From an uncultured Eubacteriales bacterium (GTDB taxonomy: Bacteria; Acidobacteriota; Aminicenantia; Aminicenantales; Saccharicenantaceae), in the NCBI GenBank assembly GCA_964551995.1, contig CAZKFD010000004.1, positions 45,762 to 109,761 of the forward strand: a stretch of 64,000 bases of DNA, read 5' to 3'. The notes under the pieces were generated by a model. That model was not told the origin of the DNA, did no database searches, and saw only the letters and a list, made by a program, of their open reading frames with translations. Positions 1 through 9,779 of this stretch are shown piece by piece. Both the position numbers and the translations under genes were made by a program. Each line of letters opens with the position of its first letter. Positions within the stretch are counted from its first letter, which is position 1.

Positions 1-686
1 AATCCATCGAGAAGAACCATCCCGAGATCTTCCTGATCGTCCTGCTAATTGCCGAGCGGCCCGAGGAGGTCACCGATTTCCGCAGGAGCGTCAACGGCGA
101 GGTCGTGGCCTCGACGTTCGACGAACCGCCGACCCGGAACGCCCAGGTCGCGAACGTTGTCCTCGAGAAGGCCAAGCGCCTGGTGGAGATCAAGCGGGAC
201 GTCGTCATCCTGCTCGATTCGATCACGCGGCTGGCCCGGGCCCACAACGCCATCGTCCCACCCTCGGGGAAGGTTCTGTCGGGCGGCATCGATGCCAACG
301 CGCTCCATAAGCCGAAAAAATTCTTCGGCTCCGCACGAAAAGTCGAGGAAGGCGGCAGCCTCACGATCCTGGCCACGGCCCTGGTGGATACCGGAAGCCG
401 GATGGACGAAGTCATCTTCGAGGAATTCAAGGGCACGGGCAACATGGAGATCAACCTCGACCGGCGGCTCGTCGACAAGCGGGTCTTCCCGGCCATCGAC
501 ATCAGCCGGTCGGGCACCCGGAAAGAGGAGCTTCTGATCGAGGAGGCGGACCTCAATCGTATCTGGGTCCTGCGCAAGGTCCTGAGCCAGATGAACGAGG
601 TCGAGGCCGTCGAGCTCCTGATCGACAAGCTGAGCAAGACCAAGACCAACCAGGACTTCCTGGCGGCCATGAGCAAGGCCCTCTGA
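1..686 (+). CDS. rho: Transcription termination factor Rho (C-terminal part; gene starts before the window)
   Basis: Motifs [72 protein letters not shown]; open frame from position 3 to TGA at 684-686. Confidence 0.97.
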
Positions 687-728
687 GGCCAGCCTCAGGC
701 CCCCCGGGGGTTTCCGCCGCAAGGCGGC
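683..728 (+). terminator. Short GC hairpins right after rho (CTGAGG-CCAG-CCTCAG; CCGCC-GCAA-GGCGG), possible terminator or stabiliser
   Basis: Inverted repeats seen directly, one with a GNRA loop; no clear U-tract. Confidence 0.3.
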
Positions 729-1076
729 TCGCCCAAAGATTGTGAATCGTTGGGGGAGGGGTCCGGTTTTTGGGAGCTCCATAATCGGATGCCGGGGAAA
801 AAACCCTCCGAAGAGCGGCTGACCGAAGTCGAAGCAGATGAAATTTAGGATCCGGGGAAGAGGAATCTGCTGTGGCTGGGCCTTACCGAGCCATAAGACA
901 GGCCGGGAAGAGGGACATATGGCGTGGCGGCGGGAAGCGGGCATGCCGTCGCGTGGAGGCCGTTCTCTCAAGCGACCTTTCCACAGTTGCACAAGGTTTG
1001 GTCAGGCCGGAATTCCACAGGATGAGGAAAAACGTATCTTATTGATCCGGAACCGGATTAGAGAAATGCCGGGATT

Positions 1077-1104
1077 GAGTCGCATAAGATATATTATGTA
1101 AACT
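1077..1104 (+). other. dif: dif-like XerCD recombination site (chromosome dimer resolution site)
   Basis: GAGTCGCATAA-GATATA-TTATGTAAACT has the 11-6-11 layout with inner CATAA/TTATG symmetry. The left arm resembles the E. coli XerC arm (GGTGCGCATAA) and the right arm matches the B. subtilis dif arm TTATGTAAACT. It lies in AT-rich intergenic DNA. Confidence 0.85.
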
Positions 1105-1208
1105 AATGCATGGCAGAGCCTAACCCATAATTATGCCACCGCGAAAAATTGCCCCTTAGTTCTCCTCACACCCTCCACAATCCCCACGCGCCTTTGATTT
1201 TATAAGGA

Positions 1209-2045
1209 TCAGTCCCGCGACTTCAGCTTCTGTATGATTTCTTCCAGGATCTGAATGATTTCCTGCTTGCTGACGGTCTGCTTCTTGAATTCAAGTCTCA
1301 TACGGTACTTGTCGCTATCTTCGGGGACGAAGTTATACACGTAGAATTTGATTTTCTTAGTCTTTCCCTTGAGATATTTGGCGAGGTCTCTCGTGTCTTC
1401 GCGTGTCAGGTGGCGCTCGGCGATCTCCTTGGCCAGCTTTTGCATGTCATCGGCCGTCTTCTGCTTAGCGATTTCAATGATGGTGGTCCGGCTGAACATC
1501 CCTGAGCCTTTGATGATGTCGCGAACGGCGGCCGGGATCTTGGTAATGGATAGGATTTCGGTTATGGTCGACCGGGCCTTGCCGATCTTCTCAGAAATCT
1601 GCTGGTGGTTGTATCCGTAGAGCGAAATCAGGGATTGGAGGCCGTCGGCTTCCTCGAAGATATCGAGGTCCTTACGCTGGAGGTTTTCGATGAGCGCGAT
1701 CTCCATGGCCTCGTTTTCCTGGACGTCCATCTCGATGCACGGGATTTCCCTGAGGCCGATATTCTTGGAGGCGATATACCTCCGCTCTCCGGCGATGATC
1801 TCGAAGCGGTTAGCCTTGGAGCGGACGAGGATGGGCTCGAGGATGCCCTTAATCCGGATGGAATCCATGAGCTCCTGGATATTGCCGAGTTCGCTTCGCG
1901 CCTGGTGCGGATTCGGGTCGATGTGCTCTATGGGGATCATGCGAATCCTCGGGCCCATGGAGCGTGAGGATATCAGGTCAACGAAATGGCCGTTGTGTTT
2001 CATGCCCACGGTTTCTGGAAGGCCGGATTTCTTAATTTTTTGCAC
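1209..2045 (-). CDS. parB: ParB/Spo0J-family CTPase partition protein (atypical N-terminus and recognition helix)
   Basis: PNPHQAR, GILEPILVR, IIAGERRY (CTP motif), ALIENLQRKDL and an HTH. GTG start at 2045 (VQKIKKSGLPE) overlaps the parA stop. Confidence 0.9.
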   Translation of the reverse strand: MQKIKKSGLPETVGMKHNGHFVDLISSRSMGPRIRMIPIEHIDPNPHQARSELGNIQELMDSIRIKGILEPILVRSKANRFEIIAGERRYIASKNIGLREIPCIEMDVQENEAMEIALIENLQRKDLDIFEEADGLQSLISLYGYNHQQISEKIGKARSTITEILSITKIPAAVRDIIKGSGMFSRTTIIEIAKQKTADDMQKLAKEIAERHLTREDTRDLAKYLKGKTKKIKFYVYNFVPEDSDKYRMRLEFKKQTVSKQEIIQILEEIIQKLKSRD

Positions 2046-2796
2046 GTTCCAATATCTCCTCGGCGACTTTCCGGTACTGCTCCGCGCCAATTGAGGCCGG
2101 AGCATAGGTGAAGATCGATTCCTTGTAGGCCGGGCTCTCCTCGAGCTTGACGCTCTTGGAGATGTAGGTCTTGAAAAGCTTGTTGCCGAAGACACGGCGG
2201 ATTCGCTCGACGACGTCGCGAGCCAGATTGGTACGCTTGTCATGAAGGGTGATCAGCACGCCCAGGATCTTGAGCTGCGGATTGGCGATCCGTCGGACTT
2301 TTTCGATTGTCTCCAGGAGGTCGTCTGTGCCTTCGAGGCACAAATAAGACGACTGGATCGGGATCAGGATCCAGGAGGCGGCGACCAGGGCGTTCAGAGT
2401 TATGAGCCCTAGAGTCGGCGGCGTGTCGATAAAAATATATTGGTACTTGTTCTTGATGGATTCCACAGCGTCCTTTAGGCGGAAATGGCCGTCGATTTCG
2501 CCCAGAAGAGAAGGCTCAAGCTTGGCCATGGAGATCTTGGCTATGGCCAGGTCAAGGCCGGGGATTGTTGAATGGACGATGACGCTGTCGATCTTCTCAT
2601 GCTTGTTCATAAGAACGTCGAAGAGGGATTTTTCGTACGAGGAAGGATTAGCCACGGTGGAGATCGTGCTGTGGGCTTGAGGGTCCATGTCGATAAGGAG
2701 GACCTTTTTGCCGATCAGCGCCAGCGCCGCTGAAATGTTGATTGATGTTGTGGTCTTGCCCACTCCGCCTTTTTGATTTGTGATCGCGATGATCAA
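2032..2796 (-). CDS. parA: ParA/Soj-family ATPase
   Basis: Deviant Walker A NQKGGVGKTT, LLIDMDPQ, IFIDTPPTLG, NALVAA. TTG start at 2796 follows a GGAGGGAGG RBS. Confidence 0.93.
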   Translation of the reverse strand: MIIAITNQKGGVGKTTTSINISAALALIGKKVLLIDMDPQAHSTISTVANPSSYEKSLFDVLMNKHEKIDSVIVHSTIPGLDLAIAKISMAKLEPSLLGEIDGHFRLKDAVESIKNKYQYIFIDTPPTLGLITLNALVAASWILIPIQSSYLCLEGTDDLLETIEKVRRIANPQLKILGVLITLHDKRTNLARDVVERIRRVFGNKLFKTYISKSVKLEESPAYKESIFTYAPASIGAEQYRKVAEEILERAKN

Positions 2797-2837
2797 CAGA
2801 CTGCCTCCCTCCGCGCCATTTTTATTCGGAGACAACA

Positions 2838-2866
2838 TTTATAGCCAAAGGAAATATCAATTGCAA
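2838..2866 (-). promoter_or_regulatory. Putative sigma70 promoter of parAB (TTGCAA-17-TATAAA)
   Basis: -35/-10-like hexamers at 17-bp spacing on the minus strand, about 40 nt before the start. Confidence 0.5.
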
Positions 2867-2893
2867 GGGAATTCTATAAAACGCAAGAACGGT

Positions 2894-2915
2894 AAATGTC
2901 GGCGTGCCGACATTT
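2894..2915. promoter_or_regulatory. Inverted repeat AAATGTCGGC-GT-GCCGACATTT; candidate non-canonical parS or parAB operator
   Basis: 10-bp perfect arms with a 2-bp spacer. The 16-bp core begins TGT and ends ACA like canonical parS (TGTTTCACGTGAAACA). Located just upstream of the parA promoter. Confidence 0.55.
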
Positions 2916-3505
2916 TCGATAAATGGTTGAAAAATAATAATAAATGCGGTCGCGAGGGATGATACATATAACACATGATAGAGCAGAAATCGGTCTGACC
3001 GAGATAAGATCTAGGAATAAGGAATCCGACGGGAGTTCGGGTCTGCGGCGACGCCAACAATCTGCATGGCCTCGTCAGGCGTTAATGGGCGGAAAGGAGA
3101 TTCATGGGGGCATAAGATATAGGATAAGAAAAAGAATTAAAATGGGAGAGCTGGGGAGACGAGCGAGTGTGCGGGGAAGTGCATAGTCACGAAGCAATCG
3201 GCAAACAGGGATGGTGAAATAATATATAAAAAATAGCGAATGATAGAAAAAACGGAGAATCGGCGACTCCCCTGCTTTTATGTGGGAGCGGTCGATCCTA
3301 GGGCAAAGAATATCAAGGAGCACAAGAGCTAAACAGAAACCAGGGTATCTGATTTAATATCAACGAGATAGTCGCTAATAAAAACGGCTCGATAGATTAT
3401 AAGTTATAGATAATAAAGGAAATACAAACAACGACAAGCCGATAAGGATGGTTAAAAAAAAGTTCCCCAGGCGGAAAAATTTCTGTAAAATGGGGCAGGT
3501 TGGAG

Positions 3506-4918
3506 ATGTGTGCCAAAGCGCAGGAAACTCAATTCGACCGCAGGATGAACCTTGCGGACACGGCGTTTCTTGTCGTAGGCGCGGTCGTCGGGTCGGGGAT
3601 ATTCTTGACGCCCGGCCTGATCGCGGCAAGGCTCCCTTCGCCGGGGCTGTTGCTCGGGGTTTGGGTCGGTGGGGGGCTAGTAACTCTTTGCGGGGCCCTC
3701 ACGTTTGCCGAGCTGGGGGCCATGTATCCACAGGCCGGCGGTCAATACATTTACCTGCGCGAGGCCTACGGGGCAGGCGCCGCCTTCCTCTTCGGCTGGG
3801 GCTTCTTTGGTTTCATCATGTGCGGAGGGCTGGCGGCGCTGGCCGTGGCTTTCGCCGAATTCCTGGGGTCTTTCATTCCCGCCCTGTCGACCACTGCGCC
3901 CCTTCTCAGGATGACGGTTTTAGGCCTCCCGTATTCCCTATCGGCCGGACAGGTCGTGGCTGCGGCGTCCATCCTGCTCCTGACGCTGGTGAACTCCTTC
4001 GGAATACGCTCCGGCATTGCGGTCCAGAACCTGCTGACCGTCTTCCGGATCGGCGCCGTCGTGGCCATCGTCGGGCTGGGCATCCTCATCGGGAAGAAAT
4101 CGGGCGGCGCGAACTTCAGCCATCTTTTCGGGGGTGGCCTGAGATGGTCGGAGATCCTCAAGCCTCTGGGGCTGGGCCTTGTCGCCGTGTTCTGGACTTA
4201 CGACGGCTGGTACTCGGTGAACTGCACGGCGGAGGAAATCCGGGATCCGGAAAGGAACATCCCCCGGGGCCTGATGCTGGGCGTGGCCATGGTCACCGTC
4301 CTCTACGTTTCGGCCAACCTGGTCTATCTCCTTGCGCTCCCGTACGATAAGATAAAGGGCGTCGTCAGGGTCGGCGAGATGGCTTCGACGGCCCTCTTCG
4401 GAGGGGACGTGAGCACGGCCATTTGCGCGGTCATCATGGTCTCCGTCTTCGGCTGCTTGAACGCCAACCTTCTTTTCGGTCCCAGGGTCTATTACGCCAT
4501 GGCCAAAGATGGGAGCTTCTTCCGTTCCATGGCCCGCCTCAGCCCGCGGTTCCGGGTCCCTTCGAGGGCGCTCTGGGGGCAAGCCGCCTGGTCCGCAGTT
4601 CTCTGTCTTTCAGGGACCTACGAGGCGCTTTATGAGTACATGGTGTTCGCTCTGCTTGTCTTCTTCGCGGCAACCGGCCTGTCGGTCATCGTCCTGCGCC
4701 GGACCCGGCCGCACCTTGGCCGGCCGTACAGGACATGGGGCTATCCCATCGTTCCCGCGGTCTTCATTTTGGTCAGCTTGGCCATCTTCCTGAACATCCT
4801 CTACTCCCAACCGCTCAAGTCCGCCGCCGGAGTCCTCCTCCTGGGGGCCGGGCTGCCGGCCTATCGTCTCTGGACCAGGCGGCGCCCGGACTTCTGCCGG
4901 GAAGCTAAAAAAGTATAG
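3506..4918 (+). CDS. APC-family amino acid/polyamine/organocation permease
   Basis: About 12 TM segments; VGSGIFLTP, FAELGAMYPQAGGQYIYLREAYG, WTYDGW, EEIRDPERNIP, RPYRTWGYP. Confidence 0.92.
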   Translation: MCAKAQETQFDRRMNLADTAFLVVGAVVGSGIFLTPGLIAARLPSPGLLLGVWVGGGLVTLCGALTFAELGAMYPQAGGQYIYLREAYGAGAAFLFGWGFFGFIMCGGLAALAVAFAEFLGSFIPALSTTAPLLRMTVLGLPYSLSAGQVVAAASILLLTLVNSFGIRSGIAVQNLLTVFRIGAVVAIVGLGILIGKKSGGANFSHLFGGGLRWSEILKPLGLGLVAVFWTYDGWYSVNCTAEEIRDPERNIPRGLMLGVAMVTVLYVSANLVYLLALPYDKIKGVVRVGEMASTALFGGDVSTAICAVIMVSVFGCLNANLLFGPRVYYAMAKDGSFFRSMARLSPRFRVPSRALWGQAAWSAVLCLSGTYEALYEYMVFALLVFFAATGLSVIVLRRTRPHLGRPYRTWGYPIVPAVFILVSLAIFLNILYSQPLKSAAGVLLLGAGLPAYRLWTRRRPDFCREAKKV

Positions 4919-4971: not shown

Positions 4972-6756
4972 ATGACGGAAATCACCTGCACTCTCAAGAT
5001 CCTTCCCGACGGCCTCACGGTCCGGGCGAAGTCCGGCGAGCTGCTCGCCGATGTTCTCGAACGGGCCGGCGTGTCGCTGAGCCTCTATTGCCACAAAAAA
5101 GGGCTGTGCGGGAAATGCGCCGTGCGGATCCGATCGGGACTTCTTCCCTTTCTCGACGCCCACGAGAAGGCCGTTCTCGAGAAGAGGGGTCTCAGCCCGG
5201 ACTACAGGCTGGCGTGCATGTTCCGCCTCGGGGGCGACACGGCCATCGAAACGCTTCCCGGGTCACGGTTGGGACGGGTGGCCGTCCTCGAGGCCGGAGT
5301 ATCCCGGCCGGTCGTTTTCGATCCCCAGGTCCGCAAGCTTTCCCTTGCCTTAGAGAAACCGCCACTCACCTCACCCGAGGCTCTGACGGAGAGTATGGCC
5401 GAGGCTCTCGGAACCGAGGGCCTCCGATTTCCGGGGGCGGCCTTGAGAAGCCTGGGGAGAATCGCGGCCGGCGGCGAGCCTCCCCGTCTGGTGACGGCGG
5501 TTCTCTACGGCGAGCAAGACATCCTGGAAATCGAAGAGGGCGACACCTCGGGACAGACCTACGGACTGGCCGTCGATATCGGGACGAGCACCGTGGTCGT
5601 CGAGCTCGTCGACCTCAACTCGGGGACGACGGTTGGGCGCGCGGCCTCCATGAACAGCCAGGCCTCCTACGGTGCCGACGTGGTCTCGCGGATCACGTAT
5701 GCCTTCCAGAATCCGGACAACCTGCAGCGCCTGCGGAAGTCTATCGTCCATCTGCTGAACGGCATCGTCGCCGACCTCTCGGAGCGGACGGGCGTCGCCC
5801 GGGAGCGCATCTATGAGGCCGTCGTCGCGGGAAACGCGGCCATGAACCACCTGCTCTGCGGCGTGAGCGTCGATTCGCTGGCCCTCTCGCCGTTCCATGC
5901 GGTCTTTTCGAGCCTCCCGCCGCTTCCTGCGGCGGACCTCGGTCTCGAGCTCCACCCGTCGGCCCGCGTGTTCATCGTCCCCAATATCCGCAGTTTCGTC
6001 GGCGGGGACATCACGGCCGGGCTGGCGGCTTGCGAACTCGCGAACGAGCCCGGTAACGCCCTGTTTATCGACATCGGGACCAACGGGGAGATCGTCCTCA
6101 AGAAGGGGCCGCGCTTCATGGCCACTTCGACGGCGGCGGGTCCGGCATTCGAAGGGATGAGCATCGGTTGCGGCATGCTCGCCGTCGAGGGGGCCGTGCA
6201 GAGGGTCGAGTGGCGCGACGGATTCCAGCTCCAGACGATCGGCGGCCTCCCTCCCCAGGGCGTGTGCGGGACGGGCCTCATCGACATCGTGGCGCTCGGC
6301 TTGGCCCACGGGCTGATCGGCCGCGGCGGCAAGATCTCGGCTCCAGGCAAAAAACTTCGTCTGACCGACGAGATCAGCCTCAGCCAACACGACGTGCGGG
6401 AGATCCAGCTCGCCGCCGGAGCCATTAAGACGGGGGTCCGGCTGATGCTCAAGGAGTTTCAGGTCCGCCCCGACGACCTGGAGGCCGTCTATGTCGCCGG
6501 CGCCTTCGGCAATTCGCTCGACATCGGCCACAGCCTGTCTCTGGGCCTTCTGCCGTCGATCGCCGGCGACAGGATCCGGTTCGCCGGAAATTCCTCACTG
6601 GCCGGGGCTCGCCGGCTCCTGGTCTCGGCCCCCGAGCGGGCGGCCGCGGAATCTCTCGCGAGGAGTGTCGACCATGTCTCGCTCGCGACTCGGCCCGACT
6701 TTCAAGACGAGTTCGTGCGCAGCCTCGAGTTCGGGCCGTTCTCCGGAGGTGAATGA
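4972..6756 (+). CDS. RACo-type ATP-dependent reductive activator of corrinoid proteins (2Fe-2S + ASKHA, DUF4445)
   Basis: N-terminal C-x5-C-x2-C...LAC ferredoxin motif; VDIGTST, YGADVVSRI, IDIGTNGE, AAGPAFEG, AGAFGN, GNSSLAGA. Confidence 0.92.
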   Translation: MTEITCTLKILPDGLTVRAKSGELLADVLERAGVSLSLYCHKKGLCGKCAVRIRSGLLPFLDAHEKAVLEKRGLSPDYRLACMFRLGGDTAIETLPGSRLGRVAVLEAGVSRPVVFDPQVRKLSLALEKPPLTSPEALTESMAEALGTEGLRFPGAALRSLGRIAAGGEPPRLVTAVLYGEQDILEIEEGDTSGQTYGLAVDIGTSTVVVELVDLNSGTTVGRAASMNSQASYGADVVSRITYAFQNPDNLQRLRKSIVHLLNGIVADLSERTGVARERIYEAVVAGNAAMNHLLCGVSVDSLALSPFHAVFSSLPPLPAADLGLELHPSARVFIVPNIRSFVGGDITAGLAACELANEPGNALFIDIGTNGEIVLKKGPRFMATSTAAGPAFEGMSIGCGMLAVEGAVQRVEWRDGFQLQTIGGLPPQGVCGTGLIDIVALGLAHGLIGRGGKISAPGKKLRLTDEISLSQHDVREIQLAAGAIKTGVRLMLKEFQVRPDDLEAVYVAGAFGNSLDIGHSLSLGLLPSIAGDRIRFAGNSSLAGARRLLVSAPERAAAESLARSVDHVSLATRPDFQDEFVRSLEFGPFSGGE

Positions 6757-7646
6757 TGAGCCTCTCGTTTCTCGATCTCGCGAAGCGCAGGATTGTATTA
6801 TTGGACGGCGCCATGGGGACGGAGCTCATGGCCCGCGGGCTTCCCCAGGGGGCCTGCCCCGAGGTCTGGAACGCGGAGAAACCCGGGCTCGTCCAGGAAG
6901 TGTACCGGGCTTATTTTGCCGCCGGGGCCGATGCCGTCTCGACGAACAGCTTCGGCGGCAGCCGGATCAAGCTGGCGGGACACGGGCTCGATACGCGGGC
7001 CTTCGAGCTGAACCGCTCCGCCGCGCGCCTGGCGCGCGAGATCGCGCCACCCGGCCGGGCTGTGGCCGGGAGCATGGGCCCGACGGGAAAATTCCTCAAG
7101 CCCCAGGGCGAGTTCACAGAGGAGGAATTCGAGTCTGCCTTTGCCGAACAGGCCCGGGGCCTCGCCGAAGGAGGGGCGGATGTCCTGCTCATCGAGACCC
7201 AATACGACCTCCGCGAGGCCCTCTGCGCCGTCCGCGGCGCCCGGCGGGGTTCCGTCCTTCCTGTCATGGCCACGATGACCTTCAATGCCGTGCCGAGGGG
7301 CTATTTCACTCTCATGGGGGACACCGTTTCGCGGTGCCTGTCGGAGCTCGAAACGGCGGGCGCATGCGCCGTCGGGGCCAATTGCACGCTGAACAGCGAA
7401 CAGATGGCGGGACTCGTCCGGGCCATGCGGCCCGAGACGGGGCTGCCTCTCATCGCCCAAGCCAACGCGGGAAAGCCCGCGCTCGACGCGGACGGCCGCG
7501 TCGTCTACTCCCAGAGCCTCGAGGACTACGTCCGGTTCGTGCCGGAGATCGTCCGGGGCGGCGCGAACATCGTCGGGGGCTGTTGCGGCACGACCCCCGC
7601 CTTCATCCGGGCCATGGCCGAAATTCTGGCAAGGAGTGAACGATGA
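6753..7646 (+). CDS. Stand-alone homocysteine S-methyltransferase domain protein (MetH Hcy-binding module)
   Basis: LLDGAMGTEL, AGSMGPTG, ADVLLIET; Zn ligands in GANC and GGCCGTTP. Confidence 0.92.
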   Translation: MMSLSFLDLAKRRIVLLDGAMGTELMARGLPQGACPEVWNAEKPGLVQEVYRAYFAAGADAVSTNSFGGSRIKLAGHGLDTRAFELNRSAARLAREIAPPGRAVAGSMGPTGKFLKPQGEFTEEEFESAFAEQARGLAEGGADVLLIETQYDLREALCAVRGARRGSVLPVMATMTFNAVPRGYFTLMGDTVSRCLSELETAGACAVGANCTLNSEQMAGLVRAMRPETGLPLIAQANAGKPALDADGRVVYSQSLEDYVRFVPEIVRGGANIVGGCCGTTPAFIRAMAEILARSER

Positions 7647-8299
7647 AGAGCTCAGAGCTTTTCGACGAGATGCGGCAGGCGATCATCGACGGCAACGGCG
7701 CCAGGGCCGGGAAGCTGGCCGGAGAGGCCGTCCGGGAGGGGCTCGACCTCCTTGAAGTTATTGAAAAGGGATATGTTCCGGGGATCGAGAAGGTCGGCGA
7801 TCTCTGGGAGGAAGGCGAGTACTTCCTGCCCGAGCTCATCAGCAGCGCCGAGGCCATGAAGGCGGCCATGGCCGTTCTCGAGCCCGAGCTCCAGCGCGGC
7901 CATCTCCAGGCTGCGACGGGCGGCCGGGTCGTCATCGGCACGGTCGAAGGCGACATCCACGACATCGGGAAGAGCCTCGTCGCCTCGATGCTTCAGGCCG
8001 GCGGCTTCGAGGTCTTTGATCTCGGCGCCGACGTCAGGCTCGAGCGCTTTATCGAGAAGGCCGAGGCCGTCGGGGCGCAGTTCATCTGCCTTTCAGCCCT
8101 GCTGACGACGACGATGGTCAACCAGAAGCGGCTGATCGCGCTCCTCCGCGAGAGGAACCTCCGGGACAAATACAAGGTCCTCGTCGGCGGCGCCCCGGCC
8201 AGCCAGAAATGGGCCGAAGAGGCCGGCGCCGACGGATACGCCGAGAACGCCGTCGCGGCCGTAAAGCTGGCGAAGAGCTTGGCGACACGGCGGCCTTAG
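7643..8299 (+). CDS. Corrinoid (B12-binding) protein, MttC/MtgC-like
   Basis: Cap domain (GEYFLPEL) plus GTVEGDIHDIGK (DxHxxG), SALLTTTM, VGGAP. Confidence 0.93.
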   Translation: MKSSELFDEMRQAIIDGNGARAGKLAGEAVREGLDLLEVIEKGYVPGIEKVGDLWEEGEYFLPELISSAEAMKAAMAVLEPELQRGHLQAATGGRVVIGTVEGDIHDIGKSLVASMLQAGGFEVFDLGADVRLERFIEKAEAVGAQFICLSALLTTTMVNQKRLIALLRERNLRDKYKVLVGGAPASQKWAEEAGADGYAENAVAAVKLAKSLATRRP

Positions 8300-8309
8300 G
8301 AGTGCTGCC

Positions 8310-9779
8310 ATGATCAAGACAAAGAGACCGAAAGTCGAGTTTCTGAGCCCCCGTCTCGTCGACAAGATCGTCGACGAGGGGCTGGCCTTGCTCGAAACGC
8401 AAGGGATTTTCGTCGAAAACAGGGAGGCATTGGAGCTCCTGACCGGCGCCGGGGCCCGCGCAGATGCCGCCTCTCAGCACGTCTGGATCGGCCCGGGGCT
8501 CGTCCGCGACTGCCTGGCCACCACGCCTTCTTCCGTGACCATGTACGACCGGAGCGGTGGCGCGGCTTACCGCGTTGGCGGCGACGAGGTCCACTTCGAT
8601 CCCGGCTCGGCGGCCGTCACCCTCCTCGACCACGACACGCAGGAGCAGAGAAAGGCGGGCACCCACGACCTCCTCGAATTCTATCGGGTCGTCGAGACGC
8701 TGGAACATGTCCATTTCCAGAGCACCGGGCTCATCAGCTCGGACGTTCCGCCGGCCGTTGCGGACTGCTACCGGCTCTATCTGGGGCTGCTCGCCTCCGT
8801 CAAACCGTTCGTCACGGGGACTTTCCGCGTCGAAGGCTTCCAGCCCATGAAAGACTTCCTGGTTGCCGTCCGCGGGAGCGATGAGGAGCTGGCCCGCAAG
8901 CCCCTGGCCATTTTTGACGCCTGCCCCTCCCCTCCCCTCAAGTGGAGCAACCTGACGGCGCAGAGCCTGATCGACTCCGCCCGCGCGGGTATCCCCTCCG
9001 AGCTCATCTCGATGGGGATGACCGGTGCGACCTCGCTCGTCACGATCGCCGGCACCCTCGTCCAGCACGTGGCCGAGAACCTCTGCGGTCTGGTCATCTG
9101 CCAGCTGGCCCGCCGGGGCGCGCCGGTCATCTTCGGCGGTTCCCCCTCGAGCTTCGACATGAAGAAGGGGACGACGCCGATGGGGGCCGTCGAGACCATG
9201 ATGATCGATGCGGCCTACGCCCAGATCGGCAAGCGCCTGAAACTTCCGACCCACGCGTACATGGCGTTGAGCGATTCCAAGATCAACGACGCGCAGAGCG
9301 GCATCGAAACGGCCCTGGGGGCCGCCCTGGCGGCCCTCGCCGGCGTCAACGTCATCTCCGGGCCGGGAATGCTGGATTTCGAGAGCTGCCAGAGCCTCGA
9401 GAAGCTCTGCCTCGACAACGAGATCTGCGGCATGGCCTACCGGCTCGCGGAGGGCATCGCCCAGCGGGATGAGCCCATCGCGCTGGAAGAGTTCAAGAGC
9501 TTCACTCCGGGCGGGTCCTTCCTGACCTCTCCCCACACCCGCCGGTGGTACAGGACCGAGCACACGCGGCCGCGGCTCATGGACCGCGACCGGTATCAGG
9601 ACTGGGTCCTCGCCGGGCGCCGCTCCGCCCTGGACAAAGCCCACCAGGACGTTCGTGAGAGGCTTGCAAAATACAGCCCGCCGCCGCTCTCCGACGGCCT
9701 GCGCCGGGAACTGGAAAAGATCATGAGGACTTACGCCGTGTCCCAGGGAGCCTGGCCCCTTCCGGACTCACAGTTCTAG
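8310..9779 (+). CDS. Trimethylamine methyltransferase (MttB) superfamily protein, non-pyrrolysine
   Basis: SPPLKW, GATSLVTIAGTLVQHVAENL, SDSKINDAQSGIE, AGVNVISGPGMLDF, LEKLCLDNEI. No in-frame TAG; Leu precedes SDSK at the Pyl-equivalent position. Confidence 0.9.
   Translation: MIKTKRPKVEFLSPRLVDKIVDEGLALLETQGIFVENREALELLTGAGARADAASQHVWIGPGLVRDCLATTPSSVTMYDRSGGAAYRVGGDEVHFDPGSAAVTLLDHDTQEQRKAGTHDLLEFYRVVETLEHVHFQSTGLISSDVPPAVADCYRLYLGLLASVKPFVTGTFRVEGFQPMKDFLVAVRGSDEELARKPLAIFDACPSPPLKWSNLTAQSLIDSARAGIPSELISMGMTGATSLVTIAGTLVQHVAENLCGLVICQLARRGAPVIFGGSPSSFDMKKGTTPMGAVETMMIDAAYAQIGKRLKLPTHAYMALSDSKINDAQSGIETALGAALAALAGVNVISGPGMLDFESCQSLEKLCLDNEICGMAYRLAEGIAQRDEPIALEEFKSFTPGGSFLTSPHTRRWYRTEHTRPRLMDRDRYQDWVLAGRRSALDKAHQDVRERLAKYSPPPLSDGLRRELEKIMRTYAVSQGAWPLPDSQF

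Follow-up and report, generated by a model that had tools for sequence, protein, structure and literature searches.

We propose that the inverted repeat lying upstream of a parA-parB gene pair in the DNA analysed here (the window, a stretch of 64,000 nt from an uncultured member of the Aminicenantales) is very probably the cognate parS-type site of the ParB encoded beside it. The site, the ATPase and the ParB, named here parS2, ParA2 and ParB2, would make up a second chromosomal ParA-ParB system tied to the terminus site dif. Comparison among relatives argues that the repeat behaves as a centromere-like (parS) element and not as a pure promoter operator, since its arms are invariant, it is tied to ParB2, its position is mobile and its copies cluster at the terminus. 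A first, sequence-only reading had put forward a non-canonical parS for a divergent ParB, and conservation near parAB2 now supports that proposal, with binding as a prediction; from sequence we infer binding by ParB2, CTP-dependent clamping, the interaction with ParA2 and the cellular role. The features on which the argument draws are collected in the table.

Features of the parAB2 locus and of the related loci discussed in the text (positions are those of the window unless a genome, contig or locus is named)
Feature	Position	Strand	Sequence or remark
Inverted repeat, candidate parS2	2894..2915	.	arms AAATGTCGGC (2894-2903) and GCCGACATTT (2906-2915), 10 nt each; 2-nt spacer GT
16-bp core of the repeat	2897-2912		TGTCGGCGTGCCGACA, TGTCGGC-GT-GCCGACA
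Promoter-like element of parA2	2838..2866	-	TTGCAA (2866-2861), 17-nt spacer, TATAAA (2843-2838)
IHF-consensus-like motif	2920..2932	-	TTTCAACCATTTA, one mismatch from WATCAANNNNTTR; 7 bp distal to core
parA2, Soj-type deviant Walker-A ATPase	2032..2838	-	ORF from ATG 2838; AAA_31, KGGVGKTT motif
parB2	1209..2003	-	264 aa; ParB_N CTPase-type domain, HTH, distinct C-terminal strand-strand-helix domain
dif-like site	1077..1104	+	GAGTCGCATAA-GATATA-TTATGTAAACT; 0 mismatches; 104 nt past parB2 stop
Near-canonical parS	G000:C13:107450-107465 (L010:7450-7465)		CGTTCCACGTGAAACC; in gidA 3' end, 21 bp upstream of parA1
Core sites of G220	1,260,076; 1,283,781; 1,297,742; 1,313,240; 1,340,758		last with one mismatch; control 0
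CACAGACT-NN-AGTCTGTG repeat	L075:2352-2369; L080:1397-1412, 1453-1470		

The two arms are fully complementary, as the sequence-only reading had claimed, and they stand in AT-rich DNA, again as described there, with a local GC content of 0.49-0.54 vs about 0.63 for the contig. A scan of the window returned one exact core and one match with two mismatches (14 of 100 shuffled windows had two or more matches at up to two mismatches), which bears out the remark that no second full copy is present. The draft genome (35 contigs, 2,985,355 bp, 92.7% complete) holds one exact core and one further copy with one mismatch, and at up to two mismatches the genome-wide scan that had been suggested yields 17 places, compared with 29 for the reversed-pattern control. 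Within this single genome the core is thus a singleton without enrichment, so that its significance rests on conservation in relatives and not on copy number.

Both genes next to the repeat encode recognisable partition proteins. ParA2, which has Pfam matches to AAA_31 (1.7e-55) and CbiA (6.1e-26), is the deviant Walker-A ATPase of the Soj/ParA type by which ParABS systems are recognised, and its closest matches among solved structures are ParA (8ray) and Soj (6iub and 1wcv), with E values of about 1e-51 to 1e-52. The ATG at 2838 overlaps the -10 element, and the true start is therefore probably the TTG at 2796-2794, after GGAGGGAGG at 2811-2803; alignments with the ParA2 proteins of relatives begin only at residue 10-15. 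ParB2 is matched by ParB_N (1.4e-25), HTH_ParB (1.1e-14) and the generic NCBIfam model TIGR00180 (140.5 bits), whereas its score with the Noc model TIGR04285 is 149.8 bits vs a cut-off of 315. It also matches PDB entry 7bnk (1.5e-35), and its predicted structure, with a pLDDT of 81.8, finds ParB, Noc and KorB in Foldseek searches.

An alignment of 20 ParB2 sequences with ParB1, the other ParB of this genome, shows P32, Q34, R36, G72-E73-R74-R75, E106, N107 and R110 to be invariant; ParB2 has the ParB_N domain with GERR and ENLQR boxes and the HTH that mark the ParB of a ParABS system. Throughout the order, ParB2 carries I, L or V in place of the third arginine of GERRxR that most ParBs have, a residue with a role in ParB. 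Q34 and E73 correspond to residues that we take to be catalytic in ParB proteins. They align with the positions of Myxococcus xanthus ParB that are mutated in 7bnr (Q52A) and 7o0n (E93A).

Alignments confirm the divergent ParB helix noticed earlier: the recognition helix reads RSTITEILS vs RSTVANALR in M. xanthus ParB, with the consensus GK(A/S)RSTITE-LS in ParB2, GKERSTVANALRLL in M. xanthus ParB and GKDRTSVTNYIRLL in ParB1, and the helix that follows it is divergent as well. The N-terminal peptide MRHDxHFV(D/E) is kept phylum-wide and is dissimilar to that of ParB1; it would presumably be the contact with ParA2 that gives the two Par systems their orthogonality. A strand-strand-helix domain made up of the last 45 residues is also dissimilar to its counterpart in ParB1. 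The best matches among plasmid ParBs are below 40% identity over 70-81% of ParB2 and leave the C-terminal domain uncovered, and with no close plasmid relatives a plasmid origin was rejected. Since, in addition, identity drops with taxonomic distance, the comparison argues that the ParAB2 system is old and vertically inherited. The gene is apparently frameshifted or split in one relative (G032:C4:1343871-1344615), where residues 15-184 and 181-262 of ParB2 match separately.

The genome has a second, canonical pair on contig C13, in the order mnmE-gidA-parA1-parB1, with ParB1 scoring 119 bits to ParB_N. The near-canonical parS just upstream of parA1 mirrors the place of the palindrome before parA2, and the same arrangement, with parS in the gidA 3' end before parA1, is found in four complete relatives. 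ParA2 and ParA1 are 40% identical and ParB2 and ParB1 32%; to judge from these values, the two pairs are distant paralogs.

On the far side of parB2 lies the dif-like site, which is single in the genome even at up to four mismatches; with the same pattern, none of 100 shuffles gave three or more matches. The genome encodes two Xer-type recombinases (Phage_int_SAM_1) and one FtsK with a gamma domain (FtsK_gamma). The site therefore has what a XerCD/dif system would call for, namely a single 11-6-11 sequence, Xer and FtsK-gamma partners and an antipodal position in relatives, with recombination itself as a prediction only. Given this site and its constant place in the order, the window probably spans the replication terminus. 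The cumulative GC skew of contig C4 has a weak maximum only, at about 48-66 kb, and was given no weight. ParB2 lies at about 43-50% of the chromosome away from dnaA in all eight single-contig genomes (G037, G039, G051, G057, G133, G153, G170 and G312; sizes rounded except for G170). The association with dif is constant within the order, where all 30 loci have the dif-like site next to parB2, at -1 to +220 nt from the stop. In G220, a Xer-type recombinase gene directly adjoins parB2 (G220:C1:1300850-1301092), and the dif-like pattern was not found within 15 kb of parB2.

A ParB2-type match of 59-82% identity was found in 58 of 61 order genomes; this count takes in the genome under study and two irregular copies, one partial and one split, and the three negatives are 83-92% complete. 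A canonical ParB, at about 30% identity, is present in each of the order genomes as well. Of 30 order-level loci, 26 have the exact core upstream of parA2 and one (L035) has it with one mismatch, while the remaining three end before the region; the core is also exact in five of six further order-level loci, with one mismatch in the sixth, and in all six named close relatives. The 7-nt arms of TGTCGGC-NN-GCCGACA are constant, the spacer may be GT, AT, GC, GG, AG or CG, and the flanks are merely AT-rich. The two core substitutions seen (L035 and L062) affect the outermost base and are uncompensated. In five of five near-complete relatives, the sole genome-wide match at up to one mismatch adjoins parA2, and the distance from the core to the parA2 start ranges across the order from about 29 to 305 nt. 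The sequence-only reading had named conservation near homologous parAB operons as a point on which its proposal would stand or fall, and such conservation is found here and, near parAB2, phylum-wide.

The wider distribution was examined in 301 sampled genomes of Aminicenantes/Acidobacteriota, which are related and non-independent, so that the counts carry no statistical weight; a ParB2-type match was defined by E <= 1e-45. Such a match, mostly full-length and at 37-53% identity, is present in 173 genomes and the exact motif in 130, against eight genomes for the reversed-pattern control. Both occur together in 127 genomes (125 without the unpublished G084 and G212), ParB2 only in 46, the motif only in three and neither in 125. 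Five ParB2-negative genomes scanned at up to one mismatch had no exact site and a single one-mismatch site, in G064. Some of the 46 ParB2-positive genomes without an exact core have one-mismatch or symmetric variants. In the GC-rich genomes with ParB2 and without the exact site, counts at up to two mismatches equal those of the reversed control, with the exception of G145. There, the only near-match is the symmetric variant TGTCGAC-AT-GTCGACA (TGTCGACATGTCGACA) at G145:C2:68257-68272, about 850 bp upstream of parB2, with the same base altered in both half-sites.

Family f42 is a case of its own, as no core was found within 1.5 kb of its ParB2 loci. An alternative palindrome near parB2 in L075 and L080, ACAGACTNNAGTCTGT, was considered as a switched site and rejected as a dispersed repeat: CACAGACT-NN-AGTCTGTG has 81-203 copies per genome in three of the five genomes scanned, the three being of family f42 (control 0-1), and looks like a REP or MITE-like element. 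A search of the f42 loci for shared half-sites or 11-mers returned the dif core and coding words only.

At the level of class and phylum, the place of the core is mobile. Of the 21 loci (L063-L083), 13 contain an exact copy, two only a one-mismatch copy and six none that was found. The core lies upstream of parA2 in L079 and, twice, in L081; at the parB2 start in L076; within parB2, at nt 476-503 and in frame as C-R-(R/L)-A-D, in L065, L073, L074, L077, L082 and L083; and 38-123 nt past parB2, toward dif, in L064, L068, L070 and L071. Since the core is found within or past parB2 in other lineages, it would not be a pure promoter operator. Canonical parS sites also vary in place, one parS lying within spo0J. 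Two of these loci, L067 and L076, have ParB2 and dif (L076 also the core) with no ParA2 match within 1.5 kb, and in some lineages ParB2 may work with no ParA beside it.

Copy number varies too, and in some complete genomes four to seven cores are grouped around parAB2, in a region of 80-130 kb that lies roughly opposite dnaA. In G220, whose contig C1 (2,659,040 bp) has dnaA at 391 and ParB2 at 1,299,280, five sites surround ParB2 and straddle the point opposite dnaA. In G170 (6,493,506 bp; dnaA at 3,998,789, ParB2 at 928,456), seven sites, five of them exact, lie between 875,554 and 1,005,002, with a dif-like sequence (928,250) flanked by two of these cores and two further one-mismatch matches away from the cluster. 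Clustering around dif, which the sequence-only reading had wanted checked, is thus seen both in the constant abutment of dif and parB2 within the order and in the five to seven copies around parAB2 in these two complete relatives. Twelve more genomes with several sites often have them as pairs or triplets 45-240 bp apart, and most of the copies that could be placed are less than 6 kb from ParB2; in G074 both copies lie off the contig that carries ParB2, as does one copy in several drafts.

In the window, 30 bp separate the core from the -35-like TTGCAA of parA2 downstream of it, a distance that had been estimated correctly at about 30 bp. The TTGCA-17-TATAA layout recurs in same-genus and other order-level loci when these are anchored on the palindrome. 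A consensus promoter scan did not list the TTGCAA/TATAAA pair, because it demands T as the final base of the -10 element. The contigs of the peat metatranscriptome run X3 include three that are identical to parts of the operon, two in parB2 (1544-1694 and 1725-1867) and one in parA2 (2625-2811); this is a weak hint that parAB2 is expressed, since DNA carry-over is possible and the contigs show neither transcript ends nor levels.

Next to the core, on the side away from parA2, stands a motif one mismatch from what we take to be the IHF consensus. A motif of this kind (up to one mismatch) is present 6-8 bp from the core, on that same side, in 21 of 33 order-level loci, with just two matches at any other offset or side, and none was found beside the in-gene and downstream copies of other lineages. 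The genome has two genes of the HU/IHF family, and IHF may be involved at the motif, which we offer as a lead only.

Further to the left of parAB2 are tig, lon and rho. To the right of the palindrome, an AT-rich gap of about 530-600 bp precedes genes for an amino-acid permease and corrinoid methyltransferases. The AT-rich stretch 2916-3447, between palindrome and permease gene, has no clear gene: its two small ORFs gave no Pfam match and the stretch no Rfam match. A degenerate AT palindrome lies within it, at 3389-3410. The region 4972-9779, beside the terminus locus, encodes a RACo-type corrinoid activase and homocysteine S-methyltransferase-like, B12-binding and MTTB-family methyltransferase proteins.

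According to the mechanism we propose, a ParB2 dimer would recognise the two TGTCGGC half-sites via its altered helix-turn-helix and would then close into a sliding clamp, as suggested by the retained CTP-pocket residues, spreading to neighbouring DNA that includes dif, about 1.8 kb away. The nucleoid ATPase ParA2 would act on this complex via the conserved N-terminal peptide of ParB2, positioning or segregating the terminus region. In this order, the complex would probably also feed back on parAB2 transcription, given the distance of about 30 bp from the site down to the parA2 -35. A conserved palindromic site near or inside the par operon is itself a feature by which ParABS systems are recognised, and the core is such a site.

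The alternative that deserves most weight, although we consider it unlikely, is that the site is only an autoregulatory operator through which ParB2, or ParA2 together with ParB2, represses the parA2-parB2 promoter, with no centromere-like role. Partition operons are commonly autoregulated, the core is close to the -35-like hexamer in the window, and genomes of the order have a single copy each. However, the spacing to the parA2 start varies about tenfold within the order, the site does not overlap the core promoter, the identical core occurs elsewhere within or downstream of parB2, away from any parA2 promoter, and copies lie 14-76 kb distant in G170 and G220. The operator function that the sequence-only reading had raised is therefore plausible as an added role in this order, but unlikely as the sole one, given the mobility of the site and its distant copies. 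It is more doubtful still that the binder is some other terminus-specific factor inherited along with the locus, such as a Xer accessory protein, and not ParB2. Even though the site is always near dif, and a Xer-type gene adjoins parB2 in G220, the motif is absent from 125 of the 128 genomes without ParB2, its 16-bp 7+2+7 geometry with TGT...ACA ends is in the style of the ParB family, and our reading of the tblastn and ORF tables revealed no third conserved gene in the locus.

Very little speaks for a structural element, whether RNA hairpin, bidirectional terminator or dispersed REP-like repeat. The palindrome can fold into a 9-bp stem (-12.5 kcal/mol, z = -2.3) and has T-runs on both flanks in the window, but no compensatory arm changes were seen across the phylum, the L035 and L062 substitutions break the outer pair without compensation, and the core is read in frame within parB2 in other lineages. 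Moreover, the palindrome was absent from the output of the terminator and consensus promoter scan, an Rfam search of positions 600-3600 of the window gave no match at E <= 1, and with one copy per genome the site is not a dispersed repeat. Hardly conceivable, in our view, is that the site belongs to a CooA-like regulator of the CRP/FNR family, a possibility raised by PMC545781, which gives TGTCGGCNNGCCGACA, a consensus identical to the 16-mer, as the CooA signal in front of the coo operons of Rhodospirillum rubrum and two Desulfovibrio species. No HTH_Crp_2 domain (PF13545) was detected at E <= 1e-5 in this genome, at its 92.7% completeness, or in four of five site-bearing relatives, whereas the search control was positive in all 14 named genomes; never multi-operon, the site tracks ParB2 and can sit in a coding region.

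With parS2 as the preferred reading, the system can be set beside those already known. It shares with canonical ParABS of the Soj/Spo0J type a Soj-type ParA, a ParB with a CTPase N-domain and HTH, and a 16-bp TGT...ACA palindrome beside or inside the par operon in one to several copies within about 100 kb; the genome's own parS likewise lies just upstream of parA1. It differs in the GC-rich interior of parS2, which is unrelated to canonical parS, in the recognition helix, MRHDxHFV peptide and C-terminal domain of ParB2, in its location at dif and the terminus instead of near the origin, and in sharing its chromosome with a canonical system. Noc, which has an N-terminal membrane helix and whose sites are scattered over the chromosome and avoid the terminus, offers a partial parallel. 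ParB2 is, like Noc, a ParB paralog beside a canonical ParB, with an altered HTH and a different 16-bp palindrome that it is predicted to bind, and Noc structures are among its best fold matches; contrary to Noc, it falls far short of the family cut-off and has its own ParA partner, and the one to seven parS2 sites all, or nearly all, lie at the terminus locus and are not dispersed.

MatP is a small, unrelated DNA-binding protein with no ParA partner or CTPase. MatP/matS resembles the present system, as a working analogy only, in combining a sequence-specific protein with sites confined to a dif-centred terminus, and has no homology with ParB2. The centromere of plasmid P1 is bent by IHF, and the IHF-like motif beside the core in many order-level loci recalls P1 parS. 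KorB, which acts at OB of RK2, is a ParB-family CTPase that is both partition protein and repressor (PDB 8qa8), whereas its match with ParB2 is weak (E 3.8e-11) and plasmid ParBs are less than 40% identical. The CooA operator shares its 16-bp consensus with parS2 (PMC545781) but is unlike it in that this genome has no detected CRP-type HTH and the site is tied to parAB2 and not to coo genes. A search of open-access papers and preprints revealed neither a ParABS next to dif nor any mention of the 16-mer as a parS.

Chromosomal ParABS systems are understood as origin-segregation machines, and terminus positioning beyond enterobacteria is little understood. A broader model is quite possible, though we advance it tentatively: the Acidobacteriota, Aminicenantes included, may carry a vertically inherited ParABS dedicated to the terminus, in which ParB2-CTP would clamp at parS2 and ParA2 would hold or move the terminus together with dif. 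A possible destination would be the division plane, the site of FtsK and XerCD action. If this is true, a second, orthogonal ParABS would have been fixed beside dif and kept across a large and ecologically dominant phylum, as a ParABS-built functional counterpart of MatP/matS that is orthogonal to the origin system via its site, its recognition helix and its ParA-contact peptide. The module of ParB-CTP clamp and ParA gradient would then have found a second use at the other pole of the replichore map. Such a system would also provide a new natural ParB-parS specificity pair for studying specificity switching, as well as an orthogonal labelling tool, and would make the coordination of terminus and division testable in cultured Acidobacteria.
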